Assembly (NCBI GenBank): GCA_020724225.1
Contig: DYHI01000003.1
Coordinates: 1,103 to 65,102, forward strand
From: Candidatus Altimarinus sp.
GTDB lineage: Bacteria > Patescibacteriota > Gracilibacteria > BD1-5 > UBA6164
Length of the DNA: 64,000 bases
Direction: 5' to 3'
In this document: one piece after another, positions 15,100 to 16,203 of the stretch
How positions within the stretch are numbered: position 1 is the first letter of the stretch
How the letters are laid out: the number at the start of each line of letters is the position of its first letter
The notes under the pieces: generated by a model
Database searches by the model: none
What the model saw: only the letters and a program-made list of their open reading frames with translations
Told to the model about the DNA's origin: nothing
Made by a program: the position numbers and the translations under genes

Positions 15100-16203
15100 A
15101 TGCTTCCTACTTGGTACACAAATTATAAAAAATTTATAGATAATTCAATAAAATTGTTTTTAGATGAATATCTAAATCCTGCTATCATTCCTGCGAAGGC
15201 AGGAATCTATAAAAAAAAGGATTATGACAAATTAATAGATCCCCAGATCAAGTCTGAGGATGACAATATTTATTCAGAATGACAAATAATTTGTTTTTCT
15301 AAACCTCTAAACGATTTCAAAGAAATAATTTATTATGCTACTAATTCATGAAAAAGAGTTAGAGCTATTTTAGCATTGGAGGTTTATCTAAATTTAACAA
15401 ATCAAAAACTTGAAGATATAAAACAAGATAATGATATAGTAAAAGTATGTGTTGCTTTAGAATTTATACATGCATACTCACTACTTCATGATGATTTACC
15501 ATGTATGGACAATGATGAATATAGAAGAGGACAATTAACAGTTTGGAAAAAGTATGGTGAAACAAATGCTGTTTTATGTGGAGATTTATTAAATACACTT
15601 TCTTTTGAAATACTTTCTACAATTAAAGATAATGAAAAATCAAAAAAAATTATTAATTTAATTTCTAGAGCTACTTCGATTTATGGAATGATTTGATGAC
15701 AAATTGAAGATATTTATTTTGAGCATAATATAAATGAATTAGATTTATCATTGATTGAAAGCCTACACAATAAAAAAACATGAAAACTTATTGAAGCTTC
15801 AGTTTTAGCTTGAATGATACTTGCAAAAGATTATGGCATTCCTGCATCGGTGTGAATCTATAAAAAGGATTATGACAATTTAATAGATCCCCGTATCAAG
15901 TACGAGGATGACAAAATAGGGATAAGTCAGGAATGACAAATGTATCTAAATCTATCTAGTTTCTGACAAAATATATGACTAGCTTTTCAAGTAAAAGATG
16001 ATATACTTGATGTAGAATGAACTTTTGAAGAAACAGGGAAGAGTGTATGATGAGAGAAAAAATGATTTGTTCACTTTATATGACTTGAAAAATCAAAAGA
16101 TTATTTAGAAAAACTATCAATTGAAGCATTAAAAAATATATCAGATCTAAAATCAGAAAAACTAGATTTTTTAGTTGAATATATAAAAAACAGAAATTCA
16201 TAA
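15100..16203 (+). CDS. Polyprenyl (farnesyl/geranylgeranyl) diphosphate synthase carrying two in-frame repeat-element insertions
   Basis: Asp-rich motifs LLHDDLPCMDNDEYRRG and FQVKDDILD. 367 aa, ~70 aa longer than the core fold because of the inserts at 15185-15285 and 15836-15939. Confidence 0.85.
15185..15285 (+). repeat. Palindromic modular element, full copy, in frame in the polyprenyl synthase
   Basis: atcattcctgcgaaggcaggaatctat ... atagatccccagatcaagtctgaggatgac ... cagaatgacaa. Encodes [34 protein letters not shown]. Confidence 0.9.
15836..15939 (+). repeat. Palindromic modular element, second in-frame copy in the same gene
   Basis: gcattcctgcatcggtgtgaatctat ... atagatccccgtatcaagtacgaggatgac ... 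gtcaggaatgacaa. Encodes GIPASVGIYKKDYDNLIDPRIKYEDDKIGISQEGQ. Confidence 0.9.

Follow-up and report, generated by a model that had tools for sequence, protein, structure and literature searches.

We analyzed a 64,000-nucleotide stretch of DNA from Candidatus Altimarinus sp., a member of the Gracilibacteria (contig DYHI01000003.1; hereafter the window), in which a polyprenyl diphosphate synthase gene carries two in-frame insertions of a small palindromic element, assigned below to the CGTC-tagged repetitive extragenic palindromes (REPs). Window G+C content is 24%, and TGA is read as Gly (genetic code 25), as in Gracilibacteria. This code was assigned because open reading frames (ORFs) of at least 100 aa numbered 31 under the standard code (18% of the sequence covered) and 112 with TGA as a sense codon, because TGA codons of the synthase aligned with Gly in orthologs (e.g., the Gly of the conserved GLAFQ(V/I)KDD motif), and because the closest proteins are named Candidatus Gracilibacteria. 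An Rfam scan of the window at gathering thresholds and a tRNA scan gave no match. Coordinates of the synthase, its upstream neighbor and all copies of the element are collected in Table 1.

Table 1. Synthase locus and copies of the element; positions refer to the window.
Feature	Position	Strand	Description
uppS	14376-15077		directly upstream of the synthase gene
Polyprenyl diphosphate synthase, FPPS/GGPPS type (PF00348)	15100..16203	+	367 aa under code 25; identified by translation, homologs, PDB and Foldseek
Copy a, three-module element, 102 nt	15184..15285	+	codon phase 0; 34-residue peptide; one in-frame TGA
Copy a, left unit	15187..15206	+	perfect 8-bp stem ATTCCTGC/GCAGGAAT, loop GAAG; CGTC-1-like
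Copy a, right unit	15239..15261	+	9-bp stem with one C.A mismatch, loop TCAAG; CGTC-4-like; compensatory CAGA/TCTG
Copy a, third half-unit TCAGAATGACAA (SEGQ)	15274..15285	+	inverse of the 5' end GTCATTCCTG
Copy b, three-module element, 105 nt	15835..15939	+	codon phase 0; encodes GIPASVGIYKKDYDNLIDPRIKYEDDKIGISQEGQ; two in-frame TGA
Copy b, left unit, broken stem ATTCCTGC / GTGTGAAT	15838..15857	+	three 3'-arm substitutions
Copy b, right unit	15887..15909	+	intact; compensatory CGTA/TACG
Copy c, single unit	24583..24609	+	intergenic
Copy d	20915..20992	-	in frame in RlmD/TrmA-like methyltransferase gene 20186-21703; 26-residue peptide
Copy e	23231..23308	-	in frame in metallo-beta-lactamase-fold gene 22940-24559; encodes VIPADAGIYKNDSNNLIDPRVKHEDD
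Copy f	38445..38585	-	in frame in NAD-dependent DNA ligase LigA, 36765-38993
Copy g, single left unit	41783..41809	-	in frame in AMP-binding enzyme gene 41297-42676; encodes VIPAEAGIY
Copy h, single unit	61844..61870	-	intergenic
Copy i, single unit, stem variant CCTGT/ACAGG	12564..12590	-	intergenic
Copy j, diverged dimer	22838..22928	+	intergenic; stops in the 'coding' frame

The host gene was characterized by sequence and structure comparison. A search with the synthase returned 7350 homologs, PF00348 being recorded for all; the closest named one is a polyprenyl synthetase of Candidatus Gracilibacteria, and the identical protein with W at the TGA positions is present in NCBI (P0001). The best PDB sequence matches were IspA 3q1o and 3llw (E=4e-44), and the structural model matched the FPPS/GGPPS structures 1rqj, 4lls and 7my7 in Foldseek (TM-score on target 0.74-0.87). 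The all-helical fold and both Asp-rich motifs of a PF00348 trans-prenyltransferase of the short-chain FPPS/GGPPS type were found; the first motif, DDxx(xx)D, reads DDLPCMDND (residue 131) and the second, DDxxD, reads DDILD (residue 300), both intact. The window synthase keeps 61 of the 62 columns invariant among 66 other orthologs and 94 of 96 columns conserved at >=90%. A dN/dS-style comparison (nonsynonymous to synonymous substitution rates), suggested in the earlier note, gave 0.22 against the sister-genome locus L003, the same value as between L003 and a second sister locus, L005, both insert-free; gene order SecDF-ABC-UppS-synthase is also found at these two loci. By every sequence test run the host gene looks functional, and from its conservation and uppS-adjacent position we infer that it is essential. 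It is very unlikely that the synthase is a decaying or unexpressed paralog that tolerates inserts. Although only 64 kb of the genome is visible and a second synthase copy is possible, a 367-codon open frame in a genome of such low G+C content, a dN/dS as in insert-free orthologs, the retained invariant residues and motifs, the conserved position next to uppS, and the presence of the element in the indispensable-looking LigA and RlmD as well argue against this explanation.

The earlier note had placed a full element near the N-terminus of the synthase and a second copy between the two Asp-rich motifs. Both were found there, in one intact gene, as insert 1 (residues ~27-66, 3' of the conserved N-terminal helix) and insert 2 (residues ~243-278), and both peptides quoted in the note are present exactly when TGA is read as Gly; the predicted insert-bearing synthase includes the peptide stretch DYGIPASVGIYK. 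Because the 26 residues before insert 1 are conserved (P3, W5, Y6 and Y9 are invariant), this insert is internal to the protein and not the product of a misplaced start. The next-best homologs after P0001 are 296-305 aa long and 56-60% identical overall (68-77% outside the inserts), and alignments with orthologs have two clean gaps that face the two inserts. Insert 2 is absent in all 66 orthologs compared, and insert 1 in 65 of them, the exception being P0009, a distantly related Gracilibacteria synthase encoded at locus L004; the L003 and L005 synthases have neither insert. A neighbor-joining tree of 67 orthologs places the window protein amid sequences that have no insert.

Structure prediction was consistent with these positions. 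An AlphaFold2 model (mean predicted local distance difference test score 82.8, predicted template modeling score 0.82), computed from the NCBI version P0001 with W for TGA so that 13 Gly positions are Trp in it, has low confidence only at residues ~31-70 and ~241-280 (block means ~45-73), which hold both inserts and lie between helices 4-24 and 68-80 and between helices 228-242 and 277-306. Mapping on a solved structure, also proposed in the earlier note, placed query residues 242-278 opposite 5 residues of IspA 3q1o. Each insert, a whole number of codons long and lying in the only sense frame free of TAA and TAG, is thus predicted to be an extra hydrophilic loop of 34-35 aa between helices, which leaves the catalytic fold and motifs untouched. 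An assembly artefact, with repeats collapsed or mis-joined in this metagenome-assembled genome, has an almost negligible probability; repeat copies often lie at metagenome contig ends, but copies a and b are internal to a 65-kb contig, have unique in-frame host sequence on both sides, and are identical neither to each other nor to any further copy. The same sequence is also recorded in both NCBI and GEM, possibly as one assembly.

Ten copies of the element occur in the 64 kb, in both orientations; six are genic and the rest lie in spacers. Full copies are a, b, d, e, f and j, and c, g, h and i are single left units. The left unit has the tag (C/T)GTC, an 8-bp stem (ATTCCTGC/GCAGGAAT) and a 4-nt loop (GAAG, GGAG or GGAT). 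In all full copies a conserved spacer of ~30 nt (TCTATAAAAAGGAnnATGACAATTTAATAG) follows, with the tags outside; tail and spacer together read CTATAAAAAGGAnnATGACAATTTAATAG. The right unit is inverted, with a 9-bp stem (ATCC(C)CGTG/CACG(A)GGAT) that includes one conserved C.A mismatch, the loop TCAAG and then the tag GAC(A). In copies a, b and f, as well as in one from a different genome (L172), ~12 extra nt lead to a third half-unit, CAGGAATGACAA, which is the inverse of the element's 5' end; the termini of this three-module form, GTCATTCCTG and CAGGAATGAC, are mutually inverse. A profile search of the window detected copy a (E=3.5e-25), copy b (E=2.3e-26) and 5 weaker or partial copies, the first two E-values being partly circular since the profile was built from four window copies including a and b; LigA copy f, which was outside the training set, scored E=1.1e-22. 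Independently of this circularity, the left-hairpin pattern ATTCCTGC-N4-GCAGGAAT with at most 3 mismatches matched the window 11 times, compared with 0.10 matches expected from shuffles.

The hairpins of the two synthase copies have had different fates. The left hairpin of copy a has a predicted stability of -7.7 kcal/mol as DNA (z -5.8) and -12.2 as RNA, and that of copy b only -1.5 (z -0.05) and -4.2 (z 0.06), respectively, in agreement with the earlier observation that the left stem of the second copy is broken and its frame kept. One of the stem-breaking changes in copy b, GGA>TGA, leaves the amino acid unchanged only under code 25. The right hairpins are intact in both copies (-3.9 and -4.0 as DNA, -9.3 and -8.6 as RNA, for a and b), and the right stem covaries among window copies (CGTG/CACG, CAGA/TCTG, CGTA/TACG and CCGGA/TCCGA). 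When its inner three pairs were left free in a search pattern, the free triplets were complementary in 115 of 119 independent metagenomic copies, with 8 variant types; the chance expectation is 1 in 64. The proposal that structure decays after insertion and the reading frame is retained fits the lost left hairpin of copy b and the LigA and RlmD inserts of related genomes. The description of the second copy as generally diverged does not hold, since b is 88% and a 85% identical to the family consensus, and only the left stem of b is lost, its right hairpin having been kept by compensatory change. A greater age of copy b than of copy a was rejected on this consensus identity.

The two copies most probably entered the synthase gene as separate DNA-level events, because they lie at different sites with unrelated flanks and their 79% identity over the whole core is no higher than their identity to copies in other genes. 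This bears out the independence proposed in the earlier note, and the events followed the split from the nearest sampled relatives; the inserts are younger than the separation from relatives at dS ~0.66. Had either copy given rise to the other (intragenic duplication, local hopping or gene conversion), this could account for a 56-nt central/right stretch that is 89% identical, for the shared GGATTATGAC ('DYD') and ATCAAGT loop context, and for the third half-unit common to both. However, whole-core identity to LigA copy f is 83% for a and 82% for b, the two sites are 651 bp apart, and the three-module form, being present also in copy f and L172, is a subfamily trait not private to the synthase. 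We therefore consider such a derivation quite improbable.

The exceptional ortholog, P0009, bears on the age of insert 1. At L004 1340-1416, a shorter related CGTC dimer (VIPVKTGISEGNKIDTHVNHEDDK) starts at the alignment position of insert 1. An identical alignment start in the two genes would be expected if insert 1 were ancient and had been precisely lost many times, but P0009 and the window protein belong to different clades of the tree and the nearest members in both are insert-free, so that parsimony strongly favors two gains over repeated exact deletion. In addition, the two elements have different stem variants and right units, and spacers of unequal length. Ancient origin with repeated loss is accordingly hardly credible, and the P0009 element appears, on tree position and sequence, to be an independent gain. 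The loop that holds insert 1 was then hit twice, and could be a preferred target or one of few tolerant sites.

The genic copies in the window have a frame bias. All six genic copies are in sense orientation and use one common frame, (V/I)IPA.AGIY...LIDPR.K.EDD. Intergenic copies c, h and j carry stops in this frame, and copy i is open over the stretch read. For the two-unit core, the standard code leaves just the sense frame without stops, and code 25 frees one antisense frame as well; for the three-module form, none of six frames is open under code 11 and two of six are open under code 25. With no standard-code open frame and with in-frame TGA in both copies, the synthase insertions are readable only in a UGA-recoded host. 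Copy f in LigA is a 141-nt composite, in which the right hairpin of a REP dimer is split by a nested, in-frame IPSRVQA insertion; the copy carries two extra half-units (QEGQ and GEGQ) and sits between the Ia and adenylation domains of the ligase. A LigA insert is also present in a syntenic sister genome with 71-77% DNA identity (L134, ~12114-12316; Ga0074195_1000006), where the left unit is gone or replaced and the right unit and half-units are kept; the LigA insertion, being shared by these orthologs, is old and has stayed in frame. In the RlmD insert of sister genome L001, the left unit is kept and 7 codons of the right unit are lost. All differences between LigA and RlmD orthologs are whole codons. 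When 5.8 billion proteins were searched with a profile of the element peptide, a search limited by its word index, only 18 weak or short matches were returned, including P0125, the sister RlmD.

Persistence of the LigA insert since before the split from the L134 genome is also what would be expected if the inserts had been co-opted, either with the peptide as a functional module (e.g., an interaction loop) or with the hairpins acting in cis on mRNA (pausing, stability or recombinase target). Co-option would further agree with the compensatory changes that kept the right hairpin in both synthase copies, with the occurrence of the hairpin module in a Francisella small RNA (sRNA) model, and with published work in which REPs often act as RNA elements. 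On the other side, the same peptide is present in unrelated enzymes, the inserted segments are of low confidence in structure prediction, orthologs work without inserts, and hairpins have been lost in different copies with the frame kept. A functional role of the inserts is, in our assessment, rather improbable.

The earlier note treated the repeats as an unnamed family, but they belong to a described class. CGTC REPs are defined by a CGTC tag (often TGTC or CCTC), a stem that is 8 bp long in families 1-2 and 9 bp long in families 3-4 and starts with two A/T positions, a 4/5-nt loop and a 3-nt tail with consensus CCA; they mostly form head-to-head dimers with tags outside and spacers of 20-100 bp, which are conserved in such dimers, and have no dedicated transposase (PMC3733652). 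In the window, the tags are TGTC (d, f, g, i, j), CGTC (c, h), TGTA (e), TATC (a) and TGGC (b), and across the 113 genome matches listed TGTC (81), CGTC (12) and TGTT (9) were found; the tag of the right units is TGTC on the opposite strand. Stems are 8 and 9 bp with A-T and T-A as first pairs, loops are 4 and 5 nt, and the two units are arranged head to head. Because tag, stem, loop and dimer layout match the published definition, the element is assigned, by these sequence features, as a head-to-head hybrid dimer of CGTC-tagged REPs, with a CGTC-1-like left unit and a CGTC-4-like right unit.

CGTC-1 corresponds to Neisseria dRS3 and to the Rickettsia palindromic element (RPE) RPE-6 of R. conorii, and CGTC-4 to RPE-4 (Di Nocera, De Gregorio & Rocco 2013, BMC Genomics 14:522; PMC3733652). 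The supplement of that study lists the peptide VIPAKAGI for CGTC-1 in R. conorii RC0483 and RC0657, DTVVKPRYD for CGTC-4, and two REPs in one gene, uvrB RC0550 (PMC3733652). REPs in DNA ligase and other repair genes, as well as double insertions in single ORFs, were also reported (PMC3733652). The window element agrees with this class in tag, stems, loops, tail length, dimer layout, in-frame copies (two in some ORFs), the encoded peptide VIPAKAGI, which is identical, and the lack of a linked transposase among the ~34 window ORFs scanned; it differs in its CTA tail, family-1/family-4 hybrid composition, appended third half-unit and in-frame TGA read as Gly. Like RPEs (Ogata et al. 2000, 2002; RPE-6, RPE-4), the element is found in frame in unrelated housekeeping genes and encodes an extra peptide compatible with the fold, and the synthase copies show this behavior in a functional gene whose orthologs lack them. 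In contrast to Rickettsia, an obligate intracellular alphaproteobacterium, the host here belongs to a candidate phylum, is free-living or epibiotic and uses an altered code, and classical RPE-1 is longer (~150 bp) than the window element.

Likeness to other repeat families was more limited. Neisseria dRS3 and neisserial intergenic mosaic elements (NIMEs) have a similar layout, in which 20-bp inverted repeats, ATTCC(C)-N8-(G)GGAAT, flank segments of 50-150 bp; compared with the dRS3 consensus ATTCCCNNNNNNNNGGGAAT, the window pattern ATTCCTGC-N4-GCAGGAAT has a T/A pair in place of C/G at position 6 (ATTCCT...AGGAAT). A NIME in the strict sense was rejected, given this one symmetric consensus difference, the absence of arrays, the isolation of the copies and the genic position of six of the ten; nor is a link to a filamentous-phage recombinase seen here, unlike in NIMEs. 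GTAG REPs and REPINs, which are mobilized by RAYT transposases, likewise have short hairpins, often in inverted pairs, and presumably move as single-stranded hairpins, but the tag here is CGTC/TGTC, no RAYT was found among the scanned window ORFs, and none is known for the CGTC class. MITEs, or miniature inverted-repeat transposable elements (Correia, QMITE1/2, ERIC), are also small and non-autonomous, have inverted termini and can fuse in frame with ORFs; compared with MITEs that carry terminal inverted repeats of 15-30 bp and a target-site duplication, the window element appears to differ in having no long terminal inverted repeats, its termini being themselves hairpins, and no detectable target-site duplication. 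Inspection of the flanks of copies a and b revealed no target-site duplication or direct repeat, although no formal search was run.

Window positions 15161-15236 (+) aligned with Rfam RF02748 FtrB (Francisella sRNA B) at 28.1 bits, compared with a gathering threshold of 66, and only the hairpin GuCauuCcCGCGuAGGCGgGaauCUC aligned. Membership in FtrB was rejected, the sub-threshold score being due to the common hairpin module. The FtrB family itself may include a REP unit, its consensus holding the CGTC-1 hairpin.

Sequences matching the element are widespread beyond the window. The exact left unit with tail was found in more than 112 stretches of GTDB species-representative genomes, and hosts among the matches listed include Flavobacteriaceae, Gammaproteobacteria, Planctomycetota, Ignavibacteria and Dehalococcoidia, as well as Saccharibacteria, Peribacteria, Daviesbacteria and Gracilibacteria; CCA tails are present in relatives of higher G+C content. 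The right unit was found in more than 120 metagenome contigs (G+C 0.23-0.59). Because 16 of the 113 left-unit matches listed, across all phyla, lie in standard-code frames of at least 150 aa, genic copies are not confined to Gracilibacteria, in line with the literature. Genic copies were detected at other Gracilibacteria-like loci (L023, L042, L131 and L236), and two REP copies in one long ORF were seen on two Gracilibacteria-like contigs (L141 2942-3242 and L172 740-1140). Some Gracilibacteria-like copies use another frame, RSPGQARG-TGA-Q (L141), which is open only with TGA as a sense codon.

In eleven Flavobacteriaceae loci (L009, L017, L030, L043, L048, L065, L070, L095, L109, L112 and L118), an identical left unit is followed by a terminator-like hairpin (AAAAGCCTTCA...TGAAGGCTTTT). 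The unit lies 5' of apparently one gene (start MAEEKDKQK) in many genera, and this Flavobacteriaceae copy looks like a positionally conserved, not a mobile, one. In addition, ~40 short contigs, mostly from metagenome Ga0153916 (e.g., L130, L135, L138, L143, L157 and L158), carry a high-copy element, often at contig ends, in which a CGTC dimer (GTCATTCCCGAAGTCCTTAATCGGGAATCCAG...TAGATCCCCGGGTCAAGCCCGAGGATGAC) is enclosed by inverted termini of greater length (CTGTCCATAAACT...ACTTTATGGACAG); this looks like a MITE with a REP pair at its core.

Taken together, these data argue, with a probability that we put at about 80%, that each synthase insert is a copy of a small non-coding palindromic CGTC REP, which inserted separately and has been retained in frame as a neutral passenger. 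Insertions would occur in all frames and places, with gene-breaking copies purged by selection and stop-free copies in loops surviving. Surviving inserts would be transcribed and translated with the host gene and would be neutral or nearly neutral passengers, not functional modules. After fixation the hairpins would no longer be maintained and would erode by substitution or by whole-codon indels, the host frame being kept. Recoding of UGA to Gly would be permissive for inserts, as suggested by the in-frame TGA in both copies, and the most plausible agent of movement would be a hairpin-recognizing single-strand transposase or recombinase acting in trans.

Several observations do not sit easily with the interpretation of the inserts as neutral CGTC-REP passengers. 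The 3-nt tail reads CTA instead of the published CCA (in the contexts GGAAT-CTA-TAAA and, on the other strand, GGGGAT-CTA-TTAA). The mobility mechanism has no support from window ORFs, as no transposase was found among the ~34 scanned with Pfam (~20 ORFs, mostly with syntenic Pfam labels, were left out). Translation through the inserts is deduced solely from the open frame and the conservation of the host gene. Independent occupation of the insert-1 loop in P0009 could reflect target preference and not pure filtering by selection. No empty site from a near-identical strain was found by which to fix insert boundaries, target sequence and any duplication; the sequence of sister genome L001 ends just short of the synthase gene and thus offers no such site. 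Finally, 3 of the ~7 non-loop substitutions in copy b hit the 8-nt 3' arm of the left stem, hinting at a process other than uniform neutral decay.

A more far-reaching possibility is that UGA-to-Gly recoding has lowered the barrier to gene invasion, and that CGTC REPs are still mobile, reach high density in essential genes and prefer the A-B loop of the synthase. A lowered barrier is suggested by TGA within the conserved ATGAC/GTCAT tags, by the rise from zero to two open frames, and by additional frames that become readable (L141); we regard this scenario as tentative and, on balance, unlikely. If true, CGTC REPs would be mobile in Gracilibacteria, contrary to the published suggestion that the CGTC families are heading for extinction, and would keep supplying a streamlined genome with lineage-specific surface loops.

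The repeat class, its in-frame intragenic habit and double hits per gene have already been described since 2000-2013. What appears to be new is the host lineage, Gracilibacteria, and the in-frame TGA within both copies. Taxa in the published survey were Proteobacteria, Chlorobi, Bacteroidetes, Spirochaetes and Thermotogae, with no Patescibacteria or Gracilibacteria (PMC3733652), and a 2024 review still presents Rickettsia as the outstanding case and only speculates on other prokaryotes. In the literature searched, including searches with the peptide strings, we found no paper that connects such repeats with Gracilibacteria or Patescibacteria. Modestly new angles are the dependence on UGA recoding and the evidence for movement of CGTC REPs after divergence of the sampled Gracilibacteria lineages. 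The findings add the Candidate Phyla Radiation to the hosts of translated selfish palindromes in housekeeping proteins, of which Rickettsia is the best known, one 64-kb window having the repeat in a prenyl synthase, a DNA ligase, an rRNA/tRNA methyltransferase, a metallo-beta-lactamase-fold protein and an acyl-adenylate enzyme. They also bear on the open question in the REP literature of whether CGTC repeats still move, and suggest a connection, open to testing, between reassignment of stop codons and how well repeat insertions are tolerated. In the annotation of Gracilibacteria genomes, length outliers are explained by such repeats, as are spurious small ORFs (VIPAKAGIY..., ...DPRVKHEDD), especially under the wrong code.

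Several unrelated features were noted in the window. The gene adjoining the synthase on its 3' side (16227-18014, -) is, by synteny with L003, an OLD-family/AAA ATPase nuclease of defence type (PF13175, PF13304 and PF20469). A 0.9-kb AT-rich stretch that separates LigA from the next gene (38994-39921) has no ORF of at least 70 aa under code 25 and no Rfam match at gathering level, with a possible stem at ~39490-39570. A 559-aa protein encoded at 51718-53397 (-) consists largely of thrombospondin type 3 repeats (PF02412), which account for the 105-111-nt tandem repeats at 51839-52639. Three intergenic copies of an AT-rich motif (…AATTATTAATTATTCACTATTAACTATTCA) at 11349-11404, 18954-19009 and 60176-60231 represent a different repeat family. 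A pair of 47-nt palindromic terminator-like sequences (TAAAAAACTATTTTCAA...TTGAAAATAGTTTTTTTA) at 61203-61249 and 61771-61817, 96% identical and 568 bp apart, brackets a ParE-toxin gene (61483-61761), and a MazE-like antitoxin gene lies at 60218-60433.

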